From assembly GCF_000497125.1 (NCBI RefSeq), contig NC_090604.1, positions 454,651 to 518,650 of the forward strand: 64,000 nt of DNA, given 5' to 3'. Positions 21,930 through 62,630 of this stretch are shown in pieces (position 1 is the stretch's first letter; each line of letters starts with the position of its first letter). The notes beneath the pieces were generated by a model. That model saw only the letters and a list, made by a program, of their open reading frames with translations, had not been told where the DNA came from and did no database searches. This DNA is from Spironucleus salmonicida. Lineage: Eukaryota. Position numbers and translations under genes: made by a program.

Positions 21930-22784
21930 ATGAACCCGACAGGCACATGCACCAAACTTAACACAAACTGCAAAGCCGGTCACTTCTGCCCCACGAGTGG
22001 CATGGATACCGTAAATTGCATTCCATGTGAACAAGACATGAAATTCGGTCAGGGCTGCTACTGTAAGGATGATATGGTTATCACAAACTGCAAGACGTGC
22101 TCTGGAGATAATTGCGCCACCTGCCTCCCTGGATCCTATCTCAATGGAAACATCTGCTCTAGATGCTCAAAAGGTTGTGCCGAATGTAGCGGTGCTGACT
22201 CATGCTAGAAGTGTGCCGATGGTTTCATAATGGAAGGTGGTGAATGCGTCAGAGTCTGTGGTAGTAATAAAGACTGCGAGGATGAAGTTTCAAAATTCTG
22301 TGAGATATCCTCAAAGAGGTGCGTGAAGTGTGCTGATAAGTGTTCAATTTGCTCCTCAGCGACGTTCTGCAACGCGTGCGATGGGAGTACGCATATTACC
22401 ACAATTCACGGTACGTGCACTCTTTTGTGTGAGGGTATGGGCAATGGTAACTACTGCAAGGACGGTTCTCCTACAGCCTGTGTTGCAGGGCTTGATTCTG
22501 CTTGCTAATGCGGAGTTGCTTCCAATTGCGCTTCCTGCAACAGTTCTTCAAATGGTTGCGAGACGTGTTTGCCTAATGTAGTTAAGGGGGACGATGGAGC
22601 CTGCAGTGCATGTGCTGTTGGATATAAATTTATTGGCGATATGTGCTGGGCAGATTAGCAAGGTTCTGAGGCCAACAAGATAGGGACTGGGGCGATTGTG
22701 GGCATCGTGGTTGGTGTTTTAGCGGTCGTTGTGGCAGTTGGGGGCGGCCTGGCTTATTATTTCATTAGAAAGGGTAAGAAGTGA
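21930..22784 (+). CDS. CRMP1-like, 284 aa (MNPT...RKGKK)
   Basis: 855 nt open in table 6; CXXC repeats, TM, basic pentapeptide. Confidence 0.92.
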
Positions 22785-23174
22785 TCTAAATACTTCTATA
22801 TTCAGGGAATATGGTAATTTATCTAAAATACTATATTGATGAAAACATCAGTACGAATCTTCACATTAACACATAAAATCTTTGAACTGATTTGAGTTAT
22901 ACAATAATGCCCATTTCCGGTTCAGCAATCAGGATTAGCGTATCAAATGTTGATAAAGATACGCGAAATATAATTAATGGTAAGTAACATTGTATTTATA
23001 CATTTTAGGAATTTTGATTTAATGCATTCAATATACCGTCTAACATTCTTAGTAAAAGTTAAGTCAGAGAAAACAGATTCCTACAGCGTTTTTAACGATA
23101 TTTATTAGAGTGTACTCATTTTACCCAATGTATAATTTAGTATATATTAAAAAATAATATCTTGTTTTCTCCGA

Positions 23175-23187
23175 GAAACCTAGAAAC
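23175..23187 (+). promoter_or_regulatory. CRMP upstream motif GAAAC-N3-GAAAC at -60 (representative copy)
   Basis: Recurs at -60 to -62 in diverged spacers (21870, 28454, 29699, 41104, 43768). Confidence 0.6.
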
Positions 23188-23234
23188 CAGCTTATTTATC
23201 ATTTAATCGATTATCTTAACCATATAGAGTAAAA

Positions 23235-24089
23235 ATGTCCACAACAGGCACATGCACCAAACGTAACACAAACTGCAAAGCTGGCCACTTCTGCCCAGCT
23301 ACTGATAATACAACCGTAAACTGCATTCCTTGTGAACAAGACATAAAATTCGGACAGGGCTGCTACTGCGAGGATAATTCAGTTATCACAAACTGCAAAG
23401 TATGCACAGGTACTTCTTGTTCAAAATGTCTCCCTGGCGCTTTCCTGAACAACAATTTCTGCGATTCCTGCGCAAAGGGCTGTGGCGAATGCACAGCTTT
23501 TAGTTCATGTCAGAAATGCGCCGATGGGTTCACAATGGAAGGTGGCACATGCGTCAGAATCTGCAATACCAATGACGACTGCAAGGACCAAGGTTCGACA
23601 TTTTGCCAGATATCCTTAAAAAGGTGCGTGAAGTGTGGTGATAAATGTGATATTTGCTCCTCAGCGACGTTCTGCAACGCGTGCGATGGGAATACTCATA
23701 TTACCACAATTCACGGTACGTGCACTCTTTTGTGTAATCCAATTACAGATGGTAACTACTGCAAGGACGGTGCTCCTACACCCTGTGTTGCAGGGCTTGA
23801 TTCTGCCTGCAAATGCGGATTTATGTAGAATTGCGCTTCCTGCAACACTGCTACAAATGGTTGCGAAACGTGTCTCCCTAATGTTATTCTGGGAGATGAT
23901 GGTAATTGCAGAAATTGTGTTGTTGGGTTCAAACCCATTGGCAATATGTGCTGGGCAGATTAGCAAGGTTCTGAGACCAACAAGATAGGGACTGGGGCTA
24001 TTGTGGGTATCGTGGTGGGAGTTTTGGTGGTCGTGGGGGCAGTTGGGGGCGGCCTGGCCTACTATTTTGTTAGGAGGGGGAAGAAGTGA
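23235..24089 (+). CDS. CRMP1-like, 284 aa (MSTT...RRGKK)
   Basis: 855 nt open in table 6; same architecture. Confidence 0.92.
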
Positions 24090-24544
24090 TAAAATTGTTA
24101 TTTATGAGGAGAAGCTAACTAAATTAACTGGGTAAATATATTAGATAAAGCTCAGGCGGGTACTTACTTCATTTTATAGTATAACGTACTTGAGCGAGTT
24201 TGGGGTATGTAATAATCACTAATTGGGGTTCTGGAGTGAGGAGTATTTTATTGGTTTCTATGGTGATGCCCTAATAGAATTAATGGGTATTACTACTATA
24301 TTTATAAATTTTACGATTTTTGCATCTTAGCTATTTACTTCTGCTAATAATACTATTAGCAAAAACTAAAGTTTAAGAAAACCGTTTTTGTGAAGATATA
24401 TTAAATGATAATTAGAAAATTTAAGTAATTTTACGGAATATACAATTTACTATATATAAAATATAACAATATACTTTTCTTTGCAAAACAAAGAAACTTT
24501 TTATTTATCATATTATCTATTATATTACCCATATATAGTTAAAA

Positions 24545-25399
24545 ATGAACCCGACAGGCACATGCACCAAACTTAACACAAACTGCAAAGCCGGTCACTT
24601 CTGCCCCACGAGTGGCATGGATACCGTAAATTGCATTCCATGTGAACAAGACATGAAATTCGGTCAGGGCTGCTACTGTGTGGATGAAATGGTTACCACA
24701 AACTGCAAGACGTGCGCAGGAGGAACTTGTGCCACTTGTCTCCCTGGGTCCTTTCTCAATGGAAACATCTGCTCTAGATGCTCAAAAGGTTGTGCCGAAT
24801 GTAGCGGTGCTGACTCATGCTAGAAGTGTGCCGATGGTTTCATAATGGAAGGTGGTAAATGCGTCAGAGTCTGTGGTAGTAATAAAGACTGCGAGGATGA
24901 AGTTTCAAAATTCTGTGAGATATCCTCAAAGAGGTGCGTGAAGTGTGCTGATAAGTGTTCAATTTGCTCCTCAGCGACGTTCTGCAACGCGTGCGATGGG
25001 AGTACGCATATTACCACAATTCACGGTACGTGCACTCTTTTGTGTGAGGGTATGGGCAATGGTAACTACTGCAAGGACGGTTCTCCTACAGCCTGTGTTG
25101 CAGGGCTTGATTCTGCTTGCTAATGCGGAGTTGCTTCCAATTGCGCTTCCTGCAACAGTTCTTCAAATGGTTGCGAGACGTGTTTGCCTAATGTAGTTAA
25201 GGGGGACGATGGAGCCTGCAGTGCATGTGCTGTTGGATATAAATTTATTGGCGATATGTGCTGGGCAGATTAGCAAGGTTCTGAGGCCAACAAGATAGGG
25301 ACTGGGGCGATTGTGGGCATCGTGGTTGGTGTTTTAGCGGTCGTTGTGGCAGTTGGGGGCGGCCTGGCTTATTATTTCATTAGAAAGGGTAAGAAGTGA
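24545..25399 (+). CDS. CRMP1-like, 284 aa (MNPT variant...RKGKK)
   Basis: 855 nt; copy of 21930 with a divergent internal patch. Confidence 0.92.
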
Positions 25400-25849
25400 T
25401 CTAAATACTTCTATATTCAGGGAATATGGTAATTTATCTAAAATACTATATTGATGAAAACATCAGTACGAATCTTCACATTAACACATAAAATCTTTGA
25501 ACTGATTTGAGTTATACAATAATGCCCATTTCCGGTTCAGCAATCAGGATTAGCGTATCAAATGTTGATAAAGATACGCGAAATATAATTAATGGTAAGT
25601 AACATTGTATTTATACATTTTAGGAATTTTGATTTAATGCATTCAATATACCGTCTAACATTCTTAGTAAAAGTTAAGTCAGAGAAAACAGATTCCTACA
25701 GCGTTTTTAACGATATTTATTAGAGTGTACTCATTTTACCCAATGTATAATTTAGTATATATTAAAAAATAATATCTTGTTTTCTCCGAGAAACCTAGAA
25801 ACCAGCTTATTTATCATTTAATCGATTATCTTAACCATATAGAGTAAAA

Positions 25850-26704
25850 ATGTCCACAACAGGCACATGCACCAAACGTAACACAAACTGCAAAGCTGGC
25901 CACTTCTGCCCAGCTACTGATAATACAACCGTAAACTGCATTCCTTGTGAACAAGACATAAAATTCGGACAGGGCTGCTACTGCGAGGATAATTCAGTTA
26001 TCACAAACTGCAAAGTATGCACAGGTACTTCTTGTTCAAAATGTCTCCCTGGCGCTTTCCTGAACAACAATTTCTGCGATTCCTGCGCAAAGGGCTGTGG
26101 CGAATGCACAGCTTTTAGTTCATGTCAGAAATGCGCCGATGGGTTCACAATGGAAGGTGGCACATGCGTCAGAATCTGCAATACCAATGACGACTGCAAG
26201 GACCAAGGTTCGACCTTTTGCCAGATATCCTTAAAAAGGTGCGTGAAGTGTGGTGATAAATGTGATATTTGCTCCTCAGCGACGTTCTGCAACGCGTGCG
26301 ATGGGAATACTCATATTACCACAATTCACGGTACGTGCACTCTTTTGTGTAATCCAATTACAGATGGTAACTACTGCAAGGACGGTGCTCCTACACCCTG
26401 TGTTGCAGGGCTTGATTCTGCCTGCAAATGCGGATTTATGTAGAATTGCGCTTCCTGCAACACTGCTACAAATGGTTGCGAAACGTGTCTCCCTAATGTT
26501 ATTCTGGGAGATGATGGTAATTGCAGAAATTGTGTTGTTGGGTTCAAACCCATTGGCAATATGTGCTGGGCAGATTAGCAAGGTTCTGAGACCAACAAGA
26601 TAGGGACTGGGGCTATTGTGGGTATCGTGGTGGGAGTTTTGGTGGTCGTGGGGGCAGTTGGGGGCGGCCTGGCCTACTATTTTGTTAGGAGGGGGAAGAA
26701 GTGA
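25850..26704 (+). CDS. CRMP1-like, 284 aa (MSTT...RRGKK)
   Basis: 855 nt; near-identical to 23235. Confidence 0.92.
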
Positions 26705-27159
26705 TAAAATTGTTATTTATGAGGAGAAGCTAACTAAATTAACTGGGTAAATATATTAGATAAAGCTCAGGCGGGTACTTACTTCATTTTATAGTATAAC
26801 GTACTTGAGCGAGTTTGGGGTATGTAATAATCACTAATTGGGGTTCTGGAGTGAGGAGTATTTTATTGGTTTCTATGGTGATGCCCTAATAGAATTAATG
26901 GGTATTACTACTATATTTATAAATTTTACGATTTTTGCATCTTAGCTATTTATTTCTGCTAATAATACCTTTAGCAAAAAGTAAAGTTTAAGAAAACCGT
27001 TTTTGTGAAGATATATTAAATGATAATTAGAAAATTTAAGTAATTTTACGGAATATACAATTTACTATATATAAAATATAACAATATACTTTTCTTTGCA
27101 AAACAAAGAAACTTTTTATTTATCATATTATCTATTATATTACCCATATATAGTTAAAA

Positions 27160-28014
27160 ATGAACCCGACAGGCACATGCACCAAACTTAACACAAACTG
27201 CAAAGCCGGTCACTTCTGCCCCACGAGTGGCATGGATACCGTAAATTGCATTCCATGTGAACAAGACATGAAATTCGGTCAGGGCTGCTACTGTAAGGAT
27301 GATATGGTTATCACAAACTGCAAGACGTGCTCTGGAGATAATTGCGCCACCTGCCTCCCTGGATCCTATCTCAATGGAAACATCTGCTCTAGATGCTCAA
27401 AAGGTTGTGCCGAATGTAGCGGTGCTGACTCATGCTAGAAGTGTGCCGATGGTTTCATAATGGAAGGTGGTGAATGCGTCAGAGTCTGTGGTAGTAATAA
27501 AGACTGCGAGGATGAAGTTTCAAAATTCTGTGAGATATCCTCAAAGAGGTGCGTGAAGTGTGCTGATAAGTGTTCAATTTGCTCCTCAGCGACGTTCTGC
27601 AACGCGTGCGATGGGAGTACGCATATTACCACAATTCACGGTACGTGCACTCTTTTGTGTGAGGGTATGGGCAATGGTAACTACTGCAAGGACGGAGTAG
27701 CCACGGTTTGTGCTGAAGGACTTGATTCCGCCTGCAAATGCGGATTTGTGTAGAATTGCGCTTCGTGCAACACTACTAAGGATGCCTGTGCGACGTGCTT
27801 GCCTAATGTTATTCTGGGAGCTGGTAGGACGTGTACGGATTGTGCTAGTGGGTTCAAACCCATTGGCAATATGTGCTGGCCCGAGTAGCAAGGTTCTGGT
27901 GGGAATAAAATAGGGACTGGAGCGATTGTGGGCATCGTGGTTGGTGTTTTGGTGGTCGTCGGCGCAATTGGTGGCGGTCTGGCTTATTATTTCATTAGAA
28001 AGGCGAAGAAGTGA
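27160..28014 (+). CDS. CRMP1-like, 284 aa (MNPT 5' part, different 3' part, RKAKK)
   Basis: 855 nt open in table 6. Confidence 0.92.
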
Positions 28015-28514
28015 GGTAAATGATACAAGTTAAGGCAAATTAGGCGGATGGGTGCTAACTGTGTTTTTGGAGTTTGGGATTATAAGGATTGTAGGCATCA
28101 TCGTCTTAAAGCTAAAATTAAGGTGAAGCAGGTAAAGACAAGTTGAAAAACGGGGTAAGGAGATTAGACCAGTAAAAATAGATTCGGAGTAATATCGAAC
28201 TAGAATAAACTTTAGAGTTTTCATGTAGGGATACTTGGGAGTTTGCTATCGAGTATACATAATCAATTTAGATGAGTACCTCTGTTTCAAATTTGGTTTA
28301 GCTGTATATTACTTAATAGTAGTATAAATAAATAAAAAGTAACAAAAAACACTTTCTATTACTTGATATGAATACATAACTATTAAATTTTAATTATTAT
28401 ATTAATTATTATATTAAGTATTTATATGAAATAGTATCCTGTTTTTTACCTGCGAAACTGAGAAACGAATTTATGTGCTGAATTATCGATTTAATTTTAT
28501 ACTGTAACATAAAA

Positions 28515-29369
28515 ATGGACACAACAGGAACTTGTACTAGAACTGACACAAACTGCAAAGCCGGGCACTTTTGCCCAACTACTGATACTGTAACCGTAGA
28601 CTGCATTCCTTGCACCGAAAACATGAAATTCGGTCAAGGCTGCTACTGCAAAGATAAAGATGTGACTACAAATTGCAAAGTGTGTACTGGAGAAGCATGC
28701 ACCACATGCCTCCCTGGATCTTTCCTCAATAGCAATGTGTGTACAAAATGCTCAAAAGGCTGTGGGGAGTGCACGAGTTTAAATACATGTCAGAACTGTG
28801 CTGAGGGGTACACAATGGACGAAAACACGTGTGTCAGAGTCTGTAGAAGCAATGAAGACTGCGAGGACACAGGTTCAACATATTGCGAAATAGGTATTAG
28901 TAGATGTCGTGAATGTTCTCCTAATTGCACAATTTGTTAATCGCCAGATTTCTGCTACGCGTGCGATGGGACTACTCATATCACAACGATATCTGGATAA
29001 TGTACATTGAATTGTGATGGTTTAACCGATGGTAACTACTGCAAGCACGGACAAACCACACCATGCGACGAAGGGATTGACTCTGCCTGCTAATGCGGAG
29101 GTGCGTCAAATTGCGCTTCCTGCAACACCGAATTGACTGCCTGTGCGACGTGTCTCCCTAATGGTATTAAAGCAGATAATGGGAAATGTATTATGTGTGC
29201 TACTGGGTTTAAGCTAATTGGGGATATGTGCTGGGGGGAAGAAAAATCTGGAGAGGCCAACAGGATGGGTACTGGGGCGATTGTGGGCATTGTGGTTGGT
29301 GTTTTGGTGGTCGTTGGGGCAGTTGGTGGCGGTTTAGCTTATTATTTCATTAGAAAGGCTAAGAAGTGA
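28515..29369 (+). CDS. CRMP1-like, 284 aa (MDTT...RKAKK)
   Basis: 855 nt open in table 6. Confidence 0.92.
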
Positions 29370-29759
29370 TGCATAAACAATAGATGAATGAATCATAATA
29401 AATTATCCATTAATCTTAATACTTCGAAAGACATTGTAAGAAACTCTCCAGTGTTTACTTACAAATATTAATTATAAAGAGACTTGAAATTTTACTATCT
29501 AATATCAATAGTTTATTTATATTATTTTAAAATATATTAATTTGTTCGATGTAAGTTGGTAAATCGTAGTAAAAATCGTTAATATGTAAGAAAAAACGGT
29601 TTTTATATCGTGATATCATTAATTAAATTTAAACTTATACAAATCTTAAGGGAAAATACATCAATATATACTAAAAATAATAAACTATTATTATTTGTGA
29701 AACTACGAAACTAAGTAAGTTGCTGTATTATTCATAATAATTGTCATCTAAAATTAAAA

Positions 29760-30614
29760 ATGGCAGGAACAGGCACCTGTACTAAAACAGTTACAACCTG
29801 CAAAGCTGGTCATTTCTGTCCAGCTACAGACACAACTTCAGTAAGCTGTATCCCCTGCACCGAAGACATGAAGTTCGGGCAAGGCTGCTACTGTGAAGAT
29901 AACACGGTTACGACCAATTGCAAAGTATGTAATGGGACTTCTTGCCAAACCTGCCTCCCAGGCTCTTTCCTGAGCGGGAATATGTGTTAAAAATGTTTAA
30001 AAGGCTGCGGCTAATGCACCGATTCTAATACATGCCAGAAGTGCGCCGACGGGTATAAACTGGACAGTAATGAGTGCGACAGAATCTGCTCTAAAAATGA
30101 AGACTGCCAAGATGATGCTTCGACTTTTTGCGAGATATCCTTAAAAAGTTGTGTGCCGTGTGGCAATAAATGCTTAATTTGCTCCTCTGGTATTTTCTGC
30201 AACGCGTGCGATGGGTCTTCTCATGTGACCACGATCGATGGGAAGTGCACACCGAATTGTGAAAATTTGGCCGATGGAAATTACTGCAAGAACGGAGTCG
30301 CCACGGCATGCGCTGCAGGGATTGATTCTGCTTGCTAATGCGGAGTTGCGCAAAATTGTGCTTCGTGCGACACTACTTCAAATGGTTGTGAAACGTGTTT
30401 GCCTAATATTATTAAGGGAAATGATGGTAAATGTAGGGATTGTGCTGTTGGGTTCAAACCCATTGGCAATATGTGCTGGCCCGAGCAGCAAGGTTCTGGT
30501 GGGAATAAAATAGGGACTGGAGCGATTGTGGGCATCGTGGTTGGTGTTTTGGTGGTCGTTGGGGCAGTAGGTGGCGGCCTGGCTTATTATTTTGTTAGGA
30601 GGGCGAAGAAGTGA
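29760..30614 (+). CDS. CRMP1-like, 284 aa (MAGT...RRAKK)
   Basis: 855 nt open in table 6. Confidence 0.92.
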
Positions 30615-41165: not shown

Positions 41166-42020
41166 ATGGCAGCCACAGGCACCTGTACAAGAACAGATGT
41201 AACCTGTAAAGCTGGTAATTTCTGTCCAGCTACAGATACTGCTTCAGTTAGCTGTATTCCCTGTACCGCAGATATGAAATTCGGCTAAGGCTGCTACTGC
41301 GAGGATAATTCAGTTATCACAAACTGCAAAGTATGCACAGGTACTTCTTGTTCAAAATGTCTCCCTGGCGCTTTCCTGAACAACAATTTCTGCACTAACT
41401 GCCCAAAGGGCTGTGGCGAATGCACAGCTTTTAGTTCATGTCAGAAATGCGCCGATGGGTTCACAATGGAAGGTGGCACATGCGTCAGAATCTGCAATAC
41501 CAATGACGACTGCAAGGACCAAGGTTCGACATTTTGCCAGATATCCTTAAAAAGGTGCGTGAAGTGTGGTGATAAATGTGATATTTGCTCATCGGCGACG
41601 TTCTGCAACGCGTGCGATGGGAGTACGCATATTACTACAATTCACGGTACGTGCACTCTTTTGTGTAATCCAATTACAGATGGTAACTACTGCAAGGACG
41701 GTTCTCCTACGGCCTGTGCTGAAGGGATTGATTCCGCCTGCAAATGCGGATTTGCTGAGAATTGCGCTTCGTGCAACACTGCTAAGGATGCCTGTGCGAC
41801 GTGCTTGCCTAATGTTATTCTGGGAGCTGGTAGGACGTGTACGGATTGTGCTAGTGGGTTCAAACCAATTGGCAATATGTGCTGGCCCGAGCAGCAAGAG
41901 ACTGGAGCCAATAATATAGGGACTGGGGCGATTGTGGGCATCGTGGTGGGAGTTTTGGTGGTCGTTGGGGCAGTTGGGAGTGGTCTGGCTTATTATTTCA
42001 TTAGAAAGGCTAAGAAGTGA
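41166..42020 (+). CDS. CRMP1-like, 284 aa (MAAT...RKAKK)
   Basis: 855 nt open in table 6. Confidence 0.92.
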
Positions 42021-42522: not shown

Positions 42523-43377
42523 ATGTCCACAACAGGCACATGTTCGAAAGGTAACACAAACTGCAAATCTGACCACTTCTGCCCAACTACAGATACTGCT
42601 TCAGTTATCTGTATTCCCTGTACCGAAAACATGAAATTCGGCTAAGGCTGCTATTGTGTGGATGATACAGTTATCACAAACTGCAAGACGTGCTCTGGAG
42701 ATAATTGCTCAAAATGTCTCCCTGGCGCTTTCCTGAGCAACAATTTCTGCGATTCCTGCGCAAAAGGCTGCAGCGAGTGCACTGGCGCAAATACCTGCCA
42801 GAAGTGTGCCGACGGGTTCACAATGGAAGGTGGCACATGCGTCAGAATCTGCGATAACAATTAAGACTGCGAGGATGAAGCTTTGACATTTTGCCAGATA
42901 TCCTCAAAGAGGTGCGTAAGGTGCTCTGCTCACTGCGACATTTGCTCTTCGGCGACGTTCTGCAACGCGTGCGATGGGAGTACGCATATTACCACAATTC
43001 ACGGTACGTGCACAGTATTGTGTATGGGAATGAACGATGGTAACTACTGCAAGGACGGTTCTCCTACGGCCTGCGCTGAAGGGATTGATTCCGCTTGCTA
43101 ATGCGGAGTTGCGGGAAATTGTGCTTCGTGCGACACTGCTTCAAATGGTTGCGAGACGTGTCTCCCTAATGTTATTAAGGGAAATGATGGTAGGTGTAAG
43201 GATTGTGCTGTTGGGTTCAAACCCATTGGCAATATGTGCTGGCCCGACTAACAAGGTTCTGAGGCCAACAAGATCGGGACTGGGGCGATTGTTGGTATAG
43301 TGGTTGGTGTTTTGGTGGTCGTTGGGGCAGTTGGGGGCGGTTTAGCTTATTATTTCATTAGAAAGGGTAAGAAGTGA
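42523..43377 (+). CDS. CRMP1-like, 284 aa ([10 protein letters not shown]...RKGKK)
   Basis: 855 nt open in table 6. Confidence 0.92.
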
Positions 43378-43828: not shown

Positions 43829-44683
43829 ATGGACAAGACAGGTACATGCACCAAACGTAACACAAACTGCAAAGCTGGCCACTTCTGCCCAACTACTGAT
43901 ACTGTAACCGTAAACTGCATTCCTTGTGAACAAGACATGAAATTTGGCCAGGGCTGCTACTGCAAAGATAATTCAGTTATCACAAACTGCAAGACGTGCT
44001 CTGGAGATAATTGCTCAAAATGTCTCCCTGGCGCTTTCCTGAACAACAATTTCTGCACTAACTGCCCAAAGGGCTGTGGCGAATGCACAGCTTTTAGTTC
44101 ATGTCAGAAATGCGCCGATGGGTTCACAATGGAAGGTGGCACATGCGTCAGAATCTGCAATACCAATGACGACTGCAAGGACCAAGGTTCGACATTTTGC
44201 CAGATATCCTTAAAAAGGTGCGTGAAGTGTGGTGATAAATGTGATATTTGCTCATCGGCGACGTTCTGCAACGCGTGCGATGGGAGTACGCATATTACTA
44301 CAATTCACGGTACGTGCACTCTTTTGTGTAATCCAATTACAGATGGTAACTACTGCAAGGACGGTGCTCCTACACCCTGTGTTGCAGGGCTTGATTCTGC
44401 CTGCAAATGCGGATTTGCTGAGAATTGCGCTTCGTGCAACACTGCTAAGGATGCCTGTGCGACGTGCTTGCCTAATGTTATTCTGGGAGCTGGTAGGACG
44501 TGTACGGATTGTGCTAGTGGGTTCAAACCAATTGGCAATATGTGCTGGCCCGAGCAGCAAGAGACTGGAGCCAATAATATAGGGACTGGGGCGATTGTGG
44601 GCATCGTGGTGGGAGTTTTGGTGGTCGTTGGGGCAGTTGGGAGTGGTCTGGCTTATTATTTCATTAGAAAGGCTAAGAAGTGA
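43829..44683 (+). CDS. CRMP1-like, 284 aa (MDKT...RKAKK)
   Basis: Complete even in the standard code, which confirms the family frame and length. Confidence 0.95.
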   Translation: MDKTGTCTKRNTNCKAGHFCPTTDTVTVNCIPCEQDMKFGQGCYCKDNSVITNCKTCSGDNCSKCLPGAFLNNNFCTNCPKGCGECTAFSSCQKCADGFTMEGGTCVRICNTNDDCKDQGSTFCQISLKRCVKCGDKCDICSSATFCNACDGSTHITTIHGTCTLLCNPITDGNYCKDGAPTPCVAGLDSACKCGFAENCASCNTAKDACATCLPNVILGAGRTCTDCASGFKPIGNMCWPEQQETGANNIGTGAIVGIVVGVLVVVGAVGSGLAYYFIRKAKK

Positions 44684-45185: not shown

Positions 45186-46055
45186 ATGTCCACAACAGGC
45201 ACATGTTCGAAAGGTAACACAAACTGCAAATCTGACCACTTCTGCCCAACTACAGATACTGCTTCAGTTATCTGTATTCCCTGTACCGAAAACATGAAAT
45301 TCGGCTAAGGCTGCTATTGTGTGGATGATACAGTTATCACAAACTGCAAGACGTGCTCTGGAGATAATTGCTCAAAATGTCTCCCTGGCGCTTTCCTGAG
45401 CAACAATTTCTGCGATTCCTGCGCAAAAGGCTGCAGCGAGTGCACTGATGTAAATACCTGCCAGATGTGTGCCGACGGGTTCACAATGGAAGGTGGCACA
45501 TGTGCCAGAATCTGCGATAACAATTAAGACTGCGGTGATTAAGCTACTACCTTCTGCGATGCGTCAAAATAAAGGTGTGTTTAATGCTCTACAAACTGCA
45601 CACTTTGCTAATCAGCGACTTTCTGCAACGCGTGCGATGGGACTACTCATATAACAACGATAGCTGGATAATGTACATTGAATTGTGCAGATATTGAAGA
45701 CGGAAAATATTGCAAAAACGGAACGGCCACGGCCTGTGCTGAAGGGATTGATTCTGCTTGCTAATGCGGAGTTGCGGGAAATTGCGCTTCTTGCAACACC
45801 GAATTGAATGCCTGTGATACGTGTTTGCCTAATGTAGTTAAGGGGGACGATGGAACCTGTAATACATGTGCTGTTGGATATAAATTTATTGGCGATATGT
45901 GCTGGCCGGAAGAAAACTCTGGAGAGGGCAACAGAATTGGTACTGGAGCGATTGTGGGCATCGTGGTTGGTGTTTTGGTGGTCGTCGGCGCGGTGGCGGG
46001 AGGTCTGGCCTACTATTTTGTTAGGAGGGCGAAGAAGAGAGTGGAGTAACAGTGA
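45186..46055 (+). CDS. CRMP1-like, 289 aa, extended tail RRAKKRVEQQ
   Basis: Family stop TGA changed to AGA; next in-frame TGA at 46053. Confidence 0.87.
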
Positions 46056-52490: not shown

Positions 52491-55226
52491 TCTGGCTAAA
52501 GATAATATTATGATATTATATTAGTATGGTAATTATGTTCGTTGTTACTTTTACGCATATTTGGATTTCATATAATAGGCGTAACCCGAAACAAGGTGTT
52601 ATTCTGGGAAAATATGATAATGTGGAGTAGATAGTATCCTAGGCATAAATAGTCCAAAACAGCAGTTTGGTAACAGGTACTTATATATCATGCCGGTTTA
52701 TAGTTAATAAACACGAACCTCGTAGTATTTTAATTAATTTAATTACACTTGTTTATGCACCATCTCGCCAGTGCAACACACCATTAACTACTAGCAGGAA
52801 CTCCAGCTAGCTTTGAGCAACTACCTGTCCTCTTTCTGCAAGAAACTAAAATATTACTATAGCATATAATATACAAATAATCCAATAAACCACAACTTCA
52901 ATATGCTCTTATATACACTTATTTACGATAACAATTCCTTCCAACAACCTCTTAATCAGAGCGGTCAAAAAGCAACAAACCCGCCTAGGCCGAATAACAC
53001 GGGGGTCGGGATTCCTCTTTTCACATTTACGATGCATTCTCTGACACGACTTCGTAAATGCATCCCTCTTAGCGCAGCAAGCCAGGCCGCAAAGTGGTTC
53101 GGGTGATGGTAACACGCTGCTGACCTTGAGCGACATTTGCCTAAGCCGTAGAATAGCATTACTATATCGAAACTGATATAGTATGGAATATGGAACTAGA
53201 TGAAAGGGCCCCGTTTCGAATCCGCTCTGAATGCGAGGATTCGGTGCATTCCGCGCGAAATTCCGGTACCCGAGGTGGAAGACCGTCGCTAATCCACTTT
53301 GGGCAGGTTCAAATTCGGTATAGTAATTGATATTACTGTATACTAGTATAGTATGAATTGCAGACAGGCGCGTGCTGCCGAACTAGGGGCTCCACAGAAC
53401 ACTGCAGGCGAGTTCGTAACGGCGAGCAGAATTTTCCCACAATATAGGCCCAAAGTTGCTGCGTGGAATAGGGCATTGATGGTGTGCATTTCTCATGAAA
53501 TCTAACGCACCAGACATTCGCTGCCTATATTTTCTAAATCCCATTCTTATACATATTCAAACATCATTTGCAAGATCTCTGCATGCGCTCCGCGACCTTT
53601 TCGGCAGCTTCTTGGACACCTAGAATATTTTATCCTAGAGAATTTTCTTGCTTCTCTTCACAAGGTTAGATGGTAACTCTCGGACTGAGCACATGTCGTC
53701 ACGATGCCAGTAATCGCCGTAGTTCCTATTTTCTTACCTGATCTCCCGTTAACTCTGGCAGCCAGAATCTCTATAGTCTCCAACCGGCTCCGCAGGGAGC
53801 GCAATGCCCGCCGATTTGAGTGCGGCATTCGGCACGCATTGATACCAGGTTTAGTTAAGGACAGACAGGTAGTCCACAGTGCCTAGTACGTGCAGGCGGA
53901 GTCCCTGCAGATGTTCCGCGGTGAAACATAAGCTGTCCCCAAATGATCTCAAATCGGAGTGCAGACACCATCAGGTGTTATGAAATAAATTGTATTATCT
54001 CCAGCGGCAGATGGTATCCGGTCTGTTCTGGGGCATTTCCCGACATACTTTCGGCGCCTCTTGGATGGAGGGTCGTGGCAAAGTGATTTCAATCTAATGT
54101 AGTCGCGCTGAGTTCTCTAGCTCCAGAGCGGAATCGTAGCGGAAACGCAGGTAGGTGGTCGCATTGGGAACTAGGGAAGACCGCACTGGCCATTTGCATG
54201 AATGCTCCCGTGACGTGTTCAGTACGTACAATTCCGGGCATAGCTGGCGAAATTGTTTTACTGCACGTGAGCTTGGCAGTAGCATGTACATTATGGGCTT
54301 AAGATGCTGAGGCACATTGGGGTGCAGGTGGGCAGAAATAGTCGGCTTTCAACTATCATCTGGAGTGGGCAGGCCGGAGGATGAGTTAGGCGCATACGAA
54401 CGGTTCGGGGTAGGATGGAAGCACGCGCGGTGGAGTTTTAAAGATGGGTAGGTTTCATGGGAATATTGCGAGATACGGGGAATTGGGTCACGAGTGGTTG
54501 AACCAGCGCACCAAAGCATGTTGAAGCGAAGTCCGTGTTAGGGTAATGCATCAAAAGTGTTACAATGGTGGCTCGCAGAAAATAGGTGGGAGGGGCTAGG
54601 CAGAGATAACACTAACAATAATAAAGTAGCATGACCGTAATATAGGGGTAGGGCTCAAATGCTGCGTACGCGCTAGGTGCGAAATAGCAGCAGTGAGCAG
54701 CTGTATACGGCTAATACTAATTTATGCGATTGCTGGTAGTTTATCGATGTTTGATCTATAATAGTTTAAGATACCTGCTCGGGGACAAGCTTTCCGCCAG
54801 AAACGGCCATTAGCTGGGTACCGAACTTTCTGGATACCGAATGGGTATGAAGCTAGTGTGCTGGTAGACTGACACCGCTTAATAAGTGTCTTGGGGTGTT
54901 CTATATTATTAGCGATGACATCAAGCCTGCTAGGTATGCATTATGAAACCGAACGCTAAATAATCTATATTTATATAGTAAATTACCGCAATACCAAAAT
55001 GACGTCCTCAGCTAAATCTTGTTGAAACTGCGTGCCCTAGCAGAAATGCACGCATGTCGAGTCGTACTCTTTACTAAGGTAGTCTACAGTGTAAATTGTA
55101 GCATTTCATATCAATGGTCCAAGTCGGTTTTAGCACCTCTCGACCTGCATACTCTTGGACGATCCGAGGAGAAAGCTTAGAAAGCACGCCAAGTAACGTA
55201 TCTATTACCAATCACTGTTACTCCAC

Positions 55227-56081
55227 TCACTTCTTCGCCCTCCTAACAAAATAATAAGCCAGGCCGCCACCTACTGCCCCAACGACCACCAAAACACCAA
55301 CCACGATGCCCACAATCGCCCCAGTCCCTATTTTATTCCCACCAGAACCTTGCTGCTCGGGCCAGCACATATTGCCAATGGGTTTGAACCCAACAGCACA
55401 ATCCCTACATTTACCATCATTTCCCTTAATAATATTAGGCAAACACGTTTCACAACCATTTGAAGTAGTGTCGCACGAAGCACAATTTTGCGCAACTCCG
55501 CATTAGCAAGCAGAATCAATCCCTGCAGCGCATGCCGTGGCGACTCCGTTCTTGCAGTAATTTCCATCGGCCAAATTTTCACAATTCGGTGTGCACTTCC
55601 CATCGATCGTGGTCACATGAGAAGACCCATCGCACGCGTTGCAGAAAATACCAGAGGAGCAAATTAAGCATTTATTGCCACACGGCACACAACTTTTTAA
55701 GGATATCTCGCAAAAAGTCGAAGCATCATCTTGGCAGTCTTCATTTTTAGAGCAGATTCTGTCGCACTCATTACTGTCCAGTTTATACCCGTCGGCGCAC
55801 TTCTGGCATGTATTAGAATCGGTGCATTAGCCGCAGCCTTTTAAACATTTTTAACACATATTCCCGCTCAGGAAAGAGCCTGGGAGGCAGGTTTGGCAAG
55901 AAGTCCCATTACATACTTTGCAATTGGTCGTAACCGTGTTATCTTCACAGTAGCAGCCTTGCCCGAACTTCATGTCTTCGGTGCAGGGGATACAGCTTAC
56001 TGAAGTTGTGTCTGTAGCTGGACAGAAATGACCAGCTTTGCAGGTTGTAACTGTTTTAGTACAGGTGCCTGTTCCTGCCAT
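55227..56081 (-). CDS. CRMP1-like, 284 aa (MAGT...RRAKK)
   Basis: Inverted copy of 29760; 855 nt. Confidence 0.92.
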
Positions 56082-56471
56082 TTTTAATTTTAGATGACAA
56101 TTATTATGAATAATACAGCAACTTACTTAGTTTCGTAGTTTCACAAATAATAATAGTTTATTATTTTTAGTATATATTGATGTATTTTCCCTTAAGATTT
56201 GTATAAGTTTAAATTTAATTAATGATATCACGATATAAAAACCGTTTTTTCTTACATATTAACGATTTTTACTACGATTTACCAACTTACATCGAACAAA
56301 TTAATATATTTTAAAATAATATAAATAAACTATTGATATTTGATAGTAAAATTTCAAGTCTCTTTATAATTAATATTTGTAAGTAAACACTGGAGAGTTT
56401 CTTATAATACTTTTTTAAGTATTAAGATTAATGGATAATTTATTATGATTCATTCATTTATTGTTTATGCA

Positions 56472-57326
56472 TCACTTATTACCCTTTCTAATGAAGTAAT
56501 AAGCTAAACCGCCACCAACTGCCCCAACGACCACCAAAACACCAACCACAATGCCCACAATCGCCCCAGTACCCATCCTGTTGGCCTCTCCAGATTTTTC
56601 TTCCCCCCAGCACATATCCCCAATTAGCTTAAACCCAGTAGCACACATAATACATTTCCCATTATCTGCTTTAATACCATTAGGGAGACACGTCGCACAG
56701 GCAGTCAATTCGGTGTTGCAGGAAGCGCAATTTGACGCACCTCCGCATTAGCAGGCAGAGTCAATCCCTTCGTCGCATGGTGTGGTTTGTCCGTGCTTGC
56801 AGTAGTTACCATCGGTTAAACCATCACAATTCAATGTACATTATCCAGATATCGTTGTGATATGAGTAGTCCCATCGCACGCGTAGCAGAAATCTGGCGA
56901 TTAACAAATTGTGCAATTAGGAGAACATTCACGACATCTACTAATACCTATTTCGCAATATGTTGAACCTGTGTCCTCGCAGTCTTCATTGCTTCTACAG
57001 ACTCTGACACACGTGTTTTCGTCCATTGTGTACCCCTCAGCACAGTTCTGACATGTATTTAAACTCGTGCACTCCCCACAGCCTTTTGAGCATTTTGTAC
57101 ACACATTGCTATTGAGGAAAGATCCAGGGAGGCATGTGGTGCATGCTTCTCCAGTACACACTTTGCAATTTGTAGTCACATCTTTATCTTTGCAGTAGCA
57201 GCCTTGACCGAATTTCATGTTTTCGGTGCAAGGAATGCAGTCTACGGTTACAGTATCAGTAGTTGGGCAAAAGTGCCCGGCTTTGCAGTTTGTGTCAGTT
57301 CTAGTACAAGTTCCTGTTGTGTCCAT
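56472..57326 (-). CDS. CRMP1-like, 284 aa (MDTT...RKGNK)
   Basis: Inverted copy of 28515 with altered tail; 855 nt. Confidence 0.92.
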
Positions 57327-57702
57327 TTTTATGTTACAGTATAAAATTAAATCGATAATTCAGCACATAAATTCGTTTCTCAGTTTCGCAGGTAAAAAAC
57401 AGGATACTATTTCATATAAATACTTAATATAATAATTAAAATTTAATAGTTATGTATTAATATCAAGTAATAGAAAGTGTTTTTTGTTACTTTTTATTTA
57501 TTTATACTACTATTAAGTAATATACAGCTAAACCAAATTTGAAACAGAGGTACTCATCTAAATTGATTATGTATACTCGATAGCAAACTCCCAAGTATCC
57601 CTACATGAAAACTCTAAAGTTTATTCTAGTTCGATATTACTCCGAATCTATTTTTACTGGTCTAATCTCCTTACCCCGTTTTTCAACTTGTCTTTACCTG
57701 CT

Positions 57703-58671
57703 TCACTTTAATTTTAGCTTTAAGATGATGATACCTACAATCCTTATAATCCCAAACTCCAAAAACACAGTTAGCACCCATCCGCCTAATTTACCTTAAA
57801 TTGTATCATGCACCTCACTTCTTCGCCCTCCTAACAAAATAGTAGGCCAGGCCGCCCCCCCCACTGCCCCAACGACCACCAAAACACCAACCACGATGCC
57901 CACAATCGCCCCAGTCCCTATATTATTGGCTCCAGTCTCTTGCTGCTCGGGCCAGCACATATTGCCAATTGGTTTGAACCCACTAGCACAATCCGTACAC
58001 GTCCTACCAGCTCCCAGAATAACATTAGGCAAGCACGTCGCACAGGCATCCTTAGCAGTGTTGCACGAAGCGCAATTCTCAGCAAATCCGCATTTGCAGG
58101 CGGAATCAATCCCTTCAGCACAGGCCGTAGGAGAACCGTCCTTGCAGTAGTTACCATCTGTAATTGGATTACACAAAAGAGTGCACGTACCGTGAATTGT
58201 AGTAATATGCGTACTCCCATCGCACGCGTTGCAGAACGTCGCTGAGGAGCAAATTGAACACTTATCAGCACACTTCACGCACCTCTTTGAGGATATCTCA
58301 CAGAATTTTGAAACTTCATTCTCGCAGTCTTTATTACTACCACAGACTCTGACGCATTTACCACCTTCTATTATGAAACCATCGGCACACTTCTAGCATG
58401 AGTCAGCACCGCTACATTCGGCACAACCTTTTGAGCATCTAGAGCAGATGTTTCCATTGAGATAGGATCCAGGGAGGCAGGTGGCGCAATTATCTCCAGA
58501 GCACGTCTTGCAGTTTGTGATAACCATATCATCCTTACAGTAGCAGCCCTGACCGAATTTCATGTCTTGTTCACATGGAATGCAATTTACGGTATCCATG
58601 CCACTCGTGGGGCAGAAGTGACCGGCTTTGCAGTTTGTGTTAAGTTTGGTGCATGTGCCTGTCGGGTTCAT
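57703..58671 (-). CDS. CRMP1-like (MNPT 5' part) with +2 frameshift in G8 run; 322 aa as assembled (family stop would be 57815)
   Basis: 857 nt to the family stop; shifted frame stays open in table 6 to AAGTGA at 57703. Confidence 0.6.
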
Positions 58672-59125
58672 TTTTAACTATATATGGGTAATATAATAGA
58701 TAATATGATAAATAAAAAGTTTCTTTGTTTTGCAAAGAAAAGTATATTGTTATATTTTATATATAGTAAATTGTATATTCCGTAAAATTACTTAAATTTT
58801 CTAATTATCATTTAATATATCTTCACAAAAACGGTTTTCTTAAACTTTAGTTTTTGCTAATAGTATTATTAGCAGAAGTAAATAGCTAAGATGCAAAAAT
58901 CGTAAAATTTATAAATATAGTAGTAATACCCATTAATTCTATTAGGGCATCACCATAGAAACCAATAAAATACTCCTCACTCCAGAACCCAATTAGTGAT
59001 TATTACATACCCCAAACTCGCTCAAGTACGTTATACTATAAAATGAAGTAAGTACCCGCCTGAGCTTTATCTAATATATTTACCCAGTTAATTTAGTTAG
59101 CTTCTCCTCATAAATAACAATTTTA

Positions 59126-59980
59126 TCACTTCTTCCCCCTCCTAACAAAATAGTAGGCCAGGCCGCCCCCAACTGCCCCCACGACCACCAAAACTCCCAC
59201 CACGATACCCACAATAGCCCCAGTCCCTATCTTGTTGGTCTCAGAACCTTGCTAATCTGCCCAGCACATATTGCCAATGGGTTTGAACCCAACAACACAA
59301 TTTCTGCAATTACCATCATCTCCCAGAATAACATTAAGGAGACACGTTTCGCAACCATTTGTAGCAGTGTTGCAGGAAGCGCAATTCTACATAAATCCGC
59401 ATTTGCAGGCAGAATCAAGCCCTGCAACACAGGGTGTAGGAGCACCGTCCTTGCAGTAGTTACCATCTGTAATTGGATTACACAAAAGAGTGCACGTACC
59501 GTGAATTGTAGTAATATGCGTACTCCCATCGCACGCGTTGCAGAACGTCGCCGATGAGCAAATATCACATTTATCACCACACTTCACGCACCTTTTTAAG
59601 GATATCTGGCAAAAGGTCGAACCTTGGTCCTTGCAGTCGTCATTGGTATTGCAGATTCTGACGCATGTGCCACCTTCCATTGTGAACCCATCGGCGCATT
59701 TCTGACATGAACTAAAAGCTGTGCATTCGCCACAGCCCTTTGGGCAGTTAGTGCAGAAATTGTTGTTCAGGAAAGCGCCAGGGAGACATTTTGAGCAATT
59801 ATCTCCAGAGCACGTCTTGCAGTTTGTGATAACTGAATTATCTTTGCAGTAGCAGCCCTGGCCAAATTTCATGTCTTGTTCACAAGGAATGCAGTTTACG
59901 GTTACAGTATCAGTAGTTGGGCAGAAGTGGCCAGCTTTGCAGTTTGTGTTACGTTTGGTGCATGTACCTGTCTTGTCCAT
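59126..59980 (-). CDS. CRMP1-like, 284 aa (MDKT...RRGKK)
   Basis: 855 nt open in table 6. Confidence 0.92.
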
Positions 59981-60431
59981 TTTTTACTCTATAAGGTTAA
60001 GATGGTGGATAAAATTACAAATAAGATGGTTTCTAGGTTTCGCAAGGAAAACAAGATATTATTTTTTAATATATACTAAATTATACATTGGGTAAAATGA
60101 GTGCACTCTAATAAATATCGTTAAAAACGCAGTGGGAATCTGTTTTCTCTGACTTAACTTTTACTAAGAATGTTAGACGGTATATTGAATGCATTAAATC
60201 AAAATTCCTAAAATGTATAAATACAATGTTACTTACCATTAATTATATTTCGCGTATCTTTATCAATATTTGTTACGCTAATCATGATTGCTGAACCTCA
60301 AATAGTCATTATTATATAACTCAAATCAGATCAAAGATTTTATGTGGTAATTTAAAGATTCGTACTGATGTTTTCGTCAATATATTATTTTAGATAAATT
60401 ACCATATTCCCTGAATCTAGAAGTATTTAGA

Positions 60432-61286
60432 TCACTTCTTACCCTTTCTAATGAAATAATAAGCCAGGCCGCCCCCAACTGCCACAACGACCGCTAAAAC
60501 ACCAACCACGATGCCCACAATCGCCCCAGTCCCTATCTTGTTGGCCTCAGAACCTTGTTAGTCGGGCCAGCACATATTGCCAATGGGTTTGAACCCAACA
60601 GCACAATCCTTACACCTACCATCATTTCCCTTAATAACATTAGGGAGACACGTCTCGCAACCATTTGAAGCAGTGTCGCACGAAGCACAATTTCCCGCAA
60701 CTCCGCATTAGCAAGCGGAATCAATCCCTTCAGCGCAGGCCGTAGGAGAACCGTCCTTGCAGTAGTTACCATCGTTCATTCCCATACACAATACTGTGCA
60801 CGTACCGTGAATTGTGGTAATATGCGTACTCCCATCGCACGCGTTGCAGAACGTCGCCGAAGAGCAAATGTCGCAGTGAGCAGAGCACCTTACGCACCTC
60901 TTTGAGGATATCTGGCAAAATGTCAAAGCTTCATCCTCGCAGTCTTAATTGTTATCGCAGATTCTGACGCATGTGCCACCTTCCATTGTGAACCCGTCGG
61001 CACACTTCTGGCAGGTATTTGCGCCAGTGCACTCGCTGCAGCCTTTTGCGCAGGAATCGCAGAAATTGTTGCTCAGGAAAGCGCCAGGGAGACATTTTGA
61101 GCAATTATCTCCAGAGCACGTCTTGCAGTTTGTGATAACTGTATCATCCACACAATAGCAGCCTTAGCTGAATTTCATGTTTTCGGTACAGGGAATACAG
61201 ATAACTGAAGCAGTATCTGTAGTTGGGCAGAAGTGGTCAGATTTGCAGTTTGTGTTACCTTTCGAACATGTGCCTGTTGTGGACAT
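60432..61286 (-). CDS. CRMP1-like, 284 aa ([10 protein letters not shown]...RKGKK)
   Basis: Inverted copy of 42523 with a different TM segment; 855 nt. Confidence 0.92.
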
Positions 61287-61775
61287 TTTGCAGTTTTACA
61301 GTATCAAATTAAATCGATAATTCAGCACATAACTTCGTTTCTCAGTTTCGCAGGTAAAAAACAGGATACTATTTCATATAAATACTTAATATAATAATTA
61401 AAATTTAATAGTTATGTATTAATATCAAGTAATAGAAAGTGTTTTTTGTTACTTTTTATTTATTTATACTACTATTAAGTAATATACAGCTAAACCAAAT
61501 TTGAAACAGAGGTACTCATCTAAATTGATTATGTATACTCGATAGCAAACTCCCAAGTATCCCTACATGAAAACTCTAAAGTTTATTCTAGTTCGATATT
61601 ACTCCGAATCTATTTTTACTGGTCTAATCTCCTTACCCCGTTTTTCAACTTGTCTTTACCTGCTTCACTTTAATTTTAGCTTTAAGATGATGATACCTAC
61701 AATCCTTATAATCCCAAACTCCAAAACACAGTTAGCACCCATCCGCCTAATTTGCCTTAAATTGTATCATGCACC

Positions 61776-62630
61776 TCACTTCTTAGCCTTTCTAATGAAA
61801 TAATAAGCCAGACCACTCCCAACTGCCCCAACGACCACCAAAACTCCCACCACGATGCCCACAATCGCTCCAGTCCCTATTTTATTCCCACCAGAACCTT
61901 GCTACTCGGGCCAGCACATATTGCCAATGGGTTTGAACCCACTAGCACAATCCGTACACGTCCTACCAGCTCCCAGAATAACATTAGGCAAGCACGTCGC
62001 ACAGGCATCCTTAGCAGTGTTGCACGAAGCGCAATTCTACACAAATCCGCATTTGCAGGCGGAATCAAGTCCTTCAGCACAAACCGTGGCTACTCCGTCC
62101 TTGCAGTAGTTACCATCGGCCATACCCTCACATAGTACTGTGCATGTACCGTGAATTGTAGTAATATGCGTACTCCCATCGCACGCGTTGCAGAACGTCG
62201 CCGATGAGCAAATATCACATTTATCACCACACTTCACGCACCTTTTTAAGGATATCTGGCAAAATGTCGAACCTTGGTCCTTGCAGTCGTCATTGGTATT
62301 GCAGATTCTGACGCATGTGCCACCTTCCATTGTGAACCCATCGGCGCATTTCTGACATGAACTAAAAGCTGTGCATTCGCCACAGCCCTTTGCGCAGGAA
62401 TCGCAGAAATTGTTGTTCAGGAAAGCGCCAGGGAGACATTTTGAACAAGAAGTACCTGTGCATACTTTGCAGTTTGTGATAACTGAATTATCCTCGCAGT
62501 AGCAGCCTTAGCCGAATTTCATATCTGCGGTACAGGGAATACAGCTAACTGAAGCAGTATCTGTAGCTGGACAGAAATTACCAGCTTTACAGGTTACATC
62601 TGTTCTTGTACAGGTGCCTGTGGCTGCCAT
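61776..62630 (-). CDS. CRMP1-like, 284 aa (MAAT...RKAKK)
   Basis: 855 nt open in table 6. Confidence 0.92.

Follow-up and report, generated by a model that had tools for sequence, protein, structure and literature searches.

Mosaic CRMP1 genes in three tandem arrays of Spironucleus salmonicida and their probable origin in non-allelic homologous recombination between repeat units

The CRMP1 proteins (cysteine-rich membrane protein 1) are the only candidate variable surface antigens of Spironucleus salmonicida, a systemic pathogen of salmon. We analyzed a 64-kb stretch of its genome (the window; contig NC_090604.1, positions 454,651 to 518,650 of the forward strand), reading open reading frames (ORFs) in the diplomonad code (NCBI table 6, where TAA and TAG encode Gln). 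In this reading the window contains 17 genes of one CRMP1 subfamily, arranged in three arrays whose repeat unit of ~1.3 kb holds one gene each. Array A has seven genes on the forward strand (21930-30614), array B has four on the same strand (41166-46055), and array C has six on the reverse strand (62630-55227), inverted relative to A and B. An earlier note on this DNA had counted 15 intact genes of exactly 855 nt. Indeed, 15 of the 17 have this length, which corresponds to 284 amino acids (aa), and all 17 coding sequences (CDSs) align over 855 columns with zero internal gaps. Column numbers below are positions in this gap-free alignment. The genes are:

g21930: 21930..22784, + strand; array A gene 1, MNPT 5' type with the 21930-type 3' end, 855 nt
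g23235: 23235..24089, + strand; array A gene 2, MSTT-a type, 855 nt, 1 nt apart from g25850
g24545: 24545..25399, + strand; array A gene 3, equal to g21930 save for a 74-nt patch and one single site
g25850: 25850..26704, + strand; array A gene 4, duplicate of g23235
g27160: 27160..28014, + strand; array A gene 5, hybrid of the g21930 5' part and a 3' part shared with g62630(-)
g28515: 28515..29369, + strand; array A gene 6, MDTT type, 3 nt apart from g57326(-)
g29760: 29760..30614, + strand; array A gene 7, MAGT type, 1 nt apart from g56081(-)
g41166: 41166..42020, + strand; array B gene 1, MAAT 5' type with the GFAENC...ETGANNIG 3' part
g42523: 42523..43377, + strand; array B gene 2, MSTT-b type
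g43829: 43829..44683, + strand; array B gene 3, MDKT 5' type with the g41166-type 3' part
g45186: 45186..46055, + strand; array B gene 4, 870 nt
g62630(-): 61776..62630, - strand; array C gene 1, MAAT 5' type with the g27160-type block 532-782
g61286(-): 60432..61286, - strand; array C gene 2, g42523-like with a 3' patch
g59980(-): 59126..59980, - strand; array C gene 3, MDKT 5' part (g43829) with a g23235-type 3' end
g58671(-): 57703..58671, - strand; array C gene 4, MNPT 5' part with the g41166-type block 471-782, 969 nt
g57326(-): 56472..57326, - strand; array C gene 5, MDTT type
g56081(-): 55227..56081, - strand; array C gene 6, MAGT type

The two longer genes depart from the rest at their 3' ends. 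In g45186 the TGA stop is replaced by AGA, adding five codons (tail RVEQQ). The g58671(-) gene has two additional bases in a G run near its 3' end, which shift the frame before the tail and carry the reading to 969 nt; it is probably a pseudogene or a homopolymer error.

A protein search returned 27 matches, of which 22 are named, all as CRMP1 or CRMP2 of S. salmonicida, and placed the family on a 623,396-bp contig. Four of the five unnamed matches are the window's own proteins. CRMP-1 proteins have been defined by at least three CXXC or CXC motifs, a C-terminal transmembrane segment and a [KR][KR]X[KR][KR] C-terminus (Xu et al. 2014, PMC3916229). Each of the 17 genes encodes 40 Cys with 12 CXXC and 2 CXC motifs, as well as a C-terminal hydrophobic segment that is shortened by the frameshift in g58671(-), in agreement with the first two parts of this definition. 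The terminal motif is found in 15 of them; it is missing from g57326(-), which ends in RKGNK, and from the frameshifted g58671(-), and in g45186 it is followed by the five-residue tail. The tails seen are RKGKK, RRGKK, RKAKK and RRAKK, not the CRGKA pentapeptide of the Giardia variant-specific surface proteins (VSPs). Three family proteins scanned against the Pfam VSP family (PF03302) scored 16.1, 27.5 and 19.2 bits, short of the gathering cut-off of 31.4, and some relatives carry precomputed PF03302 matches. No N-terminal signal-like segment was seen in the family proteins of the window. An AlphaFold2 model (mean predicted local confidence, pLDDT, 79.8) has the shape of a chain of short beta-hairpins, with ectodomain blocks at roughly 77-93, followed by a helix at 258-283 with pLDDT <50. 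Foldseek against the PDB gave no match at E <= 0.001; its best hits, furin-like repeats of R-spondin (E 4.9e-3) and Cys-rich domains of the EGFR family, are weak. By these sequence features, the window genes form a 284-aa subfamily of S. salmonicida CRMP1.

The tail rule calls for some caution. One of the three nucleotide changes between g57326(-) and g28515 turns the tail RKAKK into RKGNK, which fails the CRMP-1 motif rule, and a relative with the tail RMGKK (P0004) is named CRMP2. Therefore, the division into CRMP1 and CRMP2 by tail motif separates near-identical genes. Upstream, all 17 copies have an AAAATG start and a region of their own that is conserved and carries GAAAC-like repeats. 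Within the 70-nt upstream regions of the 17 genes, a doubled GAAAC-like element lies ~45-60 nt upstream (e.g. gaaactgagaaac and gaaacctagaaacc) and could be a promoter motif of the 284-aa subfamily.

The mosaic structure of the 17 genes is real and statistically overwhelming. The pairwise homoplasy index (PHI) test gave z = -31.5 for the 17 sequences and z = -38.2 for 14 representatives, from which g25850, g56081(-) and g57326(-) had been dropped because each differs from some other copy by 3 nt or less; none of 500 permutations came this low for either set. For 49 of the 91 pairs, a GENECONV-style test gave a longest identical run that was unmatched by any of 1000 site permutations, and such runs reach 631 nt within the CDS between genes that are 20-30% different elsewhere. 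We also built maximum-likelihood trees for columns 1-230, 231-490 and 491-855, limits that were chosen post hoc from the data. Congruence among them would have spoken against mosaicism; instead, they rejected one another in 6/6 approximately unbiased (AU) tests (p 3.9e-4 to 6.6e-103; log-likelihood differences 202-702), and all three segments rejected the whole-gene tree. When the genes were painted interval by interval, stretches with no mismatch to one gene switched abruptly to stretches with no mismatch to another. The suggestion that 5', middle and 3' segments have been swapped in register is thus confirmed by PHI, by the GENECONV-style runs, by the segment trees and by painting. A Hudson-Kaplan Rmin of 73 was discarded as a count of events, since recurrent mutation at a synonymous divergence (dS) near 1 also breaks the four-gamete rule. 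Of five relatives painted at the protein level (P0003, P0004, P0007, P0008 and P0024), P0004, P0007 and P0008, which lie beyond the window, are also mosaics of window types.

Several individual hybrids had been picked out beforehand, and nearly all have the composition proposed. The g27160 gene, described as the 5' part of g21930 joined to the 3' part of g62630(-), equals g21930 over columns 1-536, with all 78 differences within 537-846, and is identical to g62630(-) over 537-615 and 617-782; its junction interval is 515-536, ATGGTAACTACTGCAAGGACGG. The GFAENC and ETGANNIG sequences said to mark the ends of g41166, g43829 and g58671(-) occur in exactly those three of the 17 genes. Likewise, g59980(-) is an MDKT gene with a g23235-type end, identical to g43829 over 1-365 and to g23235 over 589-855 with one mismatch. 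The description of g45186 as the 5' half of g42523 with another 3' half needs amending: the 3' part does differ, but the shared part covers only columns 1-262, a third of the gene, and is followed by 149 differing sites. This remainder is divergent, and most of it (263-853) has no close donor within the window. Smaller patches are found as well. The 74-nt patch of g24545 (columns 136-209) contains 14 differences from g21930 and has no window donor, and g61286(-) equals g42523 save at columns 753-822, where it is identical to g21930 and g24545.

The MAAT and MNPT 5' types occur with both the g27160-type and the g41166-type internal 3' blocks (~columns 471/532-782), and all four combinations are present, carried by 61776-62630(-), 57703-58671(-), 41166-42020(+) and 27160-28014(+). 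Compared with their positional counterparts in arrays B and A, genes 1 and 4 of array C have these blocks swapped, and both swaps end on the right at 763-782. The sequences thus suggest that the two genes traded blocks reciprocally and that conversion was not one-way.

The arrays are related by large duplications. An inverted segmental duplication pairs 24554-35263, which includes distal array A and 4.6 kb of flank, with 61277-50581 (96.3% over 10.7 kb), and a second pairs 39796-44683, the upstream flank and genes 1-3 of array B, with 64000-59126 (97.2%). The head of array C therefore resembles array B, and its tail resembles array A. In addition, 21377-25406 matches 23993-28021 as a two-gene tandem unit. 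The six pairs of positional duplicates across arrays differ at 165 sites, of which 162 fall in nine clusters and three are singletons. The clusters span 10-258 nt; eight are 14-50% divergent, and in the ninth 3 of 50 nt differ (6%). Comparisons within arrays reveal further clusters of up to 310 nt, and for most clusters a third gene matches one of the two partners exactly. It follows that patch replacement has been a far greater source of differences than point mutation, and almost everything that now distinguishes recently duplicated copies stems from it. The clusters bear the signature that short-tract gene conversion after duplication would leave. We saw no signal of GC-biased conversion: the CRMP CDSs have GC 0.474 and GC at third codon positions (GC3) 0.473, not higher than two housekeeping genes of the window (0.516/0.681 and 0.481/0.454).

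Nine junction intervals were placed by requiring 60-nt flanks with no fewer than 6 diagnostic sites and no more than 1 mismatch: 430-470, 430-485, 430-537, 515-536, 571-588, 571-782, 690-701, 730-752 and 763-782. A stricter filter with exact 80-nt flanks left only three intervals and was replaced as too strict. The nine intervals, which have donors in common and are not independent, consist of 12-212 nt of three-way identity. They include the three conserved blocks that had been named as switch points, a coincidence that is partly built in, as a junction is placeable only where the target and both donors agree. The identity blocks at junctions are longer on average than under uniform breakpoint placement (mean upper-tail fraction 0.27, 9 intervals). 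This is what homology-dependent recombination predicts, and a special signal is unnecessary. A single detail exceeds this prediction: codons 146-155 (FCNACDG..H, nt 436-465) contain seven conserved-residue codons without a synonymous change in the 17 genes, and nt 443-456 form the sole stretch of at least 12 nt that is invariant across all copies. The 21-nt FCNACDG block is present in 17/17 genes (with 1 mismatch in two), whereas two shorter CRMP genes, at 20700 and 38524, lack it even when 3 mismatches are allowed. Such invariance would be explained by repeated micro-conversion, and the block could have a function at the nucleotide level.

Exact tracts are not confined to genes. They reach 1020 nt and span CDS/spacer borders, including start and stop codons. 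For example, 63099-62403 equals 40697-41393, from spacer into gene, and 59392-58537 equals 23823-24679 (1 mismatch, 1 one-base indel) through a gene's 3' end, the spacer and the 5' end of the next gene. In a greedy parse, 9 of 48 switches fell in spacer parts. The 14 spacers form four classes:

Spacer S1: 22785..23234, + strand; 450/451 nt, copies at 25400-25849, 43378-43828 and 59981-60431(-)
Spacer S2: 24090..24544, + strand; 454/455 nt, copies at 26705-27159 and 58672-59125(-)
Spacer S3: 28015..28514, + strand; 489-502 nt, copies at 42021-42522, 44684-45185, 61287-61775(-) and 57327-57816(-)
Spacer S4: 29370..29759, + strand; 390 nt, copy at 56082-56471(-)

Spacer identity is 92-100% within classes and 56-69% between them, where the longest exact match is 9-11 nt. 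Among the 136 CDS pairs, even the 68 that diverge most (69.5-76.6% identity) have in-register exact matches of 20-73 nt, with a median of 32. With g for a gene, array A reads g S1 g S2 g S1 g S2 g S3 g S4 g, array B reads g S3 g S1 g S3 g, and array C reads g S3 g S1 g S2 g S3 g S4 g. The 5' block type of a gene tracks the class of the preceding spacer, and the 3' block type tracks that of the following spacer, with g42523 as the sole exception. Hybrid genes sit between unusual spacer pairs: g27160 and g58671(-) lie between S2 and S3, and g59980(-) lies between S1 and S2, yet has an MDKT head. Where homology is absent exchange is absent too, and the spacer classes stay intact as classes. Because the tracts extend over spacers and the outer blocks of each gene go with spacer class, we conclude that the unit of exchange is the repeat unit and not a coding cassette.

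Taken together, the family displays incongruent segments, over-long identical tracts and junctions within shared identity, the features expected of one shaped by non-allelic homologous recombination, and we consider it most likely that the mosaic genes are products of such recombination between repeat units. Unequal crossovers and segmental duplications would juxtapose unlike spacer classes and leave a hybrid gene between them, and short-tract gene conversion would overwrite internal patches of 10-310 nt. Exchange between unlike units would start or resolve only inside the CDS, because no spacer class can be aligned with another, yet every CDS type has in-register blocks of at least 20 nt in common with the rest. 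Those blocks remain in register because the same 40-Cys scaffold is kept without indels. Homologous pairing would then keep every product in frame, here at 855 nt, whatever the total length. The simple rule is that homology between unlike units exists only in the CDS, hence the hybrids are always in frame. New protein combinations would be a by-product that selection may or may not exploit.

Some observations weigh against this reading. The events cannot be dated, and crossover and conversion are indistinguishable at any one junction. The clusters at 136-209 in g24545 and 486-531 in g62630, along with most of 263-853 in g45186, have no donor in the window, so that outside donors are an assumption. 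The apparent reciprocal exchange between genes 1 and 4 of array C is unexpected under simple non-reciprocal conversion. The synonymous invariance of nt 436-465 (permutation P = 0.011, a single post hoc test) is not needed by the plain model. Finally, of the 32 short Logan contigs listed from the sequencing runs described below, none could be shown to bridge a junction between diagnostic sites.

An alternative is that the arrays are a selected diversification device, a fixed-length cassette library that is shuffled in register to supply new surface antigens during systemic infection, with the conserved blocks as preferred switch sites. The 17 genes do encode 15 distinct proteins from 7-9 types per block, relatives beyond the window are mosaic for the same types, and patch replacement outruns point mutation in the conversion-like clusters that hold 162 of the 165 positional-duplicate differences. 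The junction-rich block at nt 436-465, with its invariant synonymous sites (P = 0.011), would suit a preferred site. However, the tracts take in spacers, the outer blocks of the genes go with particular spacer classes, and the homology contrast alone is enough to place junctions within the CDS and keep them in register. Nor is the length peculiar to these arrays. Proteins of 284 aa make up 11 of 23 clusters outside the window, down to 51% identity, and P0015 and P0018 (55% and 51% identity) have this length on another contig of 1.88 Mb. The length is therefore an old trait of a constrained scaffold, in which 132 of 284 aa columns are invariant among the window genes, including 40/40 Cys. Constant length permits in-frame exchange and is no evidence of design.

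Expression layout and selection bear on the same question. With their own AAAATG and upstream region, the 17 copies show no arrangement of silent cassettes and expression site, and 15 of them are full-length and intact. Deep types (dS 0.32-1.57) persist alongside identical tracts, as a diversifying system might maintain them, but the ratio of nonsynonymous to synonymous divergence (dN/dS) in the ectodomain is 0.17-0.36 in 21/21 deep-type pairs. Gene-wide positive selection was thus not seen in these pairs. The deep types appear to be old and on average under purifying selection, and the identical tracts very recent by comparison. Of three tagged CRMP1 proteins, one was at the cell surface and flagella, but the other two were, respectively, at the cell body and in structures resembling the endoplasmic reticulum, and the RNA interference (RNAi) genes that Giardia uses for VSP control are absent from S. 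salmonicida (PMC3916229). The literature puts forward an antigenic role of CRMP1 as a proposal and says that antigenic variation needs experiments (PMC3916229, PMC6397501); it also reports that 189 of 385 cysteine-rich protein genes shift expression with oxygen or antioxidant conditions (PMC6397501). We consider the cassette library quite improbable, and a selected or programmed diversification role for the arrays improbable in general. The earlier note's reading of the array as a segment-library system, with constant length keeping crossovers in frame, accordingly finds no support in the form given: tracts cross into spacers, homology contrast explains the register, the length is an old trait, and no expression site, silent cassettes or diversifying selection were seen. 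A bolder version, which we doubt, would have S. salmonicida, lacking Giardia-type RNAi, diversify its surface coat at the DNA level: indel-free, individually expressible 284-aa arrays would undergo frequent segmental conversion through nucleotide-invariant blocks (e.g. nt 436-465) and yield new ectodomain combinations on the timescale of an infection.

Assembly of repeat arrays or short-read polishing might also have generated chimeras as artefacts. The reference was Illumina-polished and repeats are hard to place, but the assembly used PacBio reads and optical maps, and its pile-ups fit correctly resolved duplications (PMC9509377). The 2-base change in the G run of g58671(-) is typical of a homopolymer error. 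Inside the clusters, however, neighbouring types are 14-50% divergent, far too much for reads to have been misplaced; the tracts end cleanly and contain 0 mismatches across hundreds of nt, and many clusters are far shorter than a long read. Although clusters of window proteins are each found on one contig only, the mosaic member P0004 outside the window is listed from sources with both older and newer annotation. Eight sequencing runs from two studies were available, none listed as RNA and four only guessed to be RNA. We compared Logan contigs of four runs (X1, X3, X5 and X6) with 43001-63000 at >=99% likeness; inside the arrays these are mostly 200-600 nt long. Contigs of the DNA runs cover 30/30 (X1) and 29/30 (X3) bins of this interval, though they may come from the assembly's own sample and so are not independent, and the contigs listed, as noted, could not be shown to bridge a junction. 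Contigs of paralogues from outside 43001-63000 also align there, such as one with a G at 59337 that matches a g23235-type copy. An artefact is unlikely as the origin of the chimeras, and we would say highly so. Retained ancestral polymorphism or convergence under structural constraint, with no recent exchange, would lead one to expect some nucleotide identity given 132 of 284 invariant aa columns including 40 Cys, but is hardly credible when synonymous sites are identical too, over tracts of up to 631 nt in the CDS and 1020 nt with spacer, when the same genes reach dS 0.3-1.6 elsewhere, and when non-coding spacers are shared as well.

The surroundings of the arrays hold other features. Two shorter CRMP genes, 20700-21473(+) and 38524-39300(+), encode 257/258 aa with 28 Cys and the tails RRQKK/RKGKK; they lie upstream of arrays A and B within a duplication of 18164-22540 and 35989-40365 (90.6%). 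A GC-rich element (~50% GC) is present in three copies of 95-96% identity at 533-2706, 49951-52124 and 35263-33719 (reverse complement), ~2.2 kb long in two and 1.5 kb in the third. It has no Rfam match, and the ORFs tried from the element and its surroundings have no Pfam match. The ORF at 46672-49191(-) encodes 839 aa with 22 in-frame TAA/TAG codons and has no Pfam match. In the two runs guessed to be RNA, contigs of 2.2 kb cover it, and in the DNA runs one of 3.6 kb does so. Housekeeping neighbours are a CCT/TCP-1 chaperonin subunit at 10536-12116(-) (Pfam E 4e-134) and ribosomal protein L4 at 14413-15351(-) (Pfam E 9e-33). Rfam gave 0 matches over the whole window, and Pfam found 0 families in 10 flank ORFs.

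The arrays belong to the same family, in the same organism, as the CRMP1/CRMP2 arrays of the S. salmonicida genome papers (PMC3916229, PMC9509377), the second of which, from 2022, notes CRMP arrays on chromosomes 2 and 9 and in one sentence suggests that gene conversion is possibly involved around CRMP regions (PMC9509377). The article texts covered by our literature search, with supplements outside its scope, gave no description of mosaic CRMP genes, breakpoints, a recombination test or spacer classes. In Giardia intestinalis, linear arrays hold over half of all vsp genes, identical inverted pairs exist, and recombination among array members has been reported (Adam et al. 2010, PMC2996952). 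Both families are diplomonad Cys-rich type I membrane proteins with CXXC motifs, a transmembrane segment and a short basic tail. However, Giardia vsp genes range from 222 to 6777 bp (PMC2996952), whereas the genes here are fixed at 855 nt; the tails are CRGKA and [KR][KR]X[KR]K, respectively; and the S. salmonicida proteins fall below the Pfam VSP cut-off, show no signal-like N-terminus and come from an organism without the RNAi genes implicated in VSP control (PMC3916229). The VSP and pseudo-VSP genes of Giardia muris likewise form tandem arrays of surface-protein genes that exchange segments, but there a few intact, centrally placed genes are supplied through segmental gene conversion from telomeric arrays whose pseudogenes are not transcribed (Xu et al. 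2020, PMC7641422). In S. salmonicida, 15 of 17 copies are intact, each with its own start context and upstream region, unlike the layout of VSG, vlsE and G. muris pseudo-VSP, in which silent or truncated donors feed one expressed copy.

The mosaic here is far cleaner than that of Giardia vsp genes, with 0-mismatch tracts beside 20-30% divergence. Opsin hybrids and globin hybrids of the Lepore type are hybrid genes that arise by unequal crossover in tandem arrays, and mosaic VSG genes reportedly form in Trypanosoma brucei. As in these cases, homology-guided exchange inside the CDS, between unlike intergenic flanks, would give in-frame hybrids; an expression site and damage-triggered repair would set T. 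brucei VSGs apart from the S. salmonicida arrays. The locus thus reveals no new kind of mechanism. It is a clean natural record that makes CRMP variation directly testable, and an unusually clean example of a kind known from Giardia and partly anticipated for S. salmonicida.

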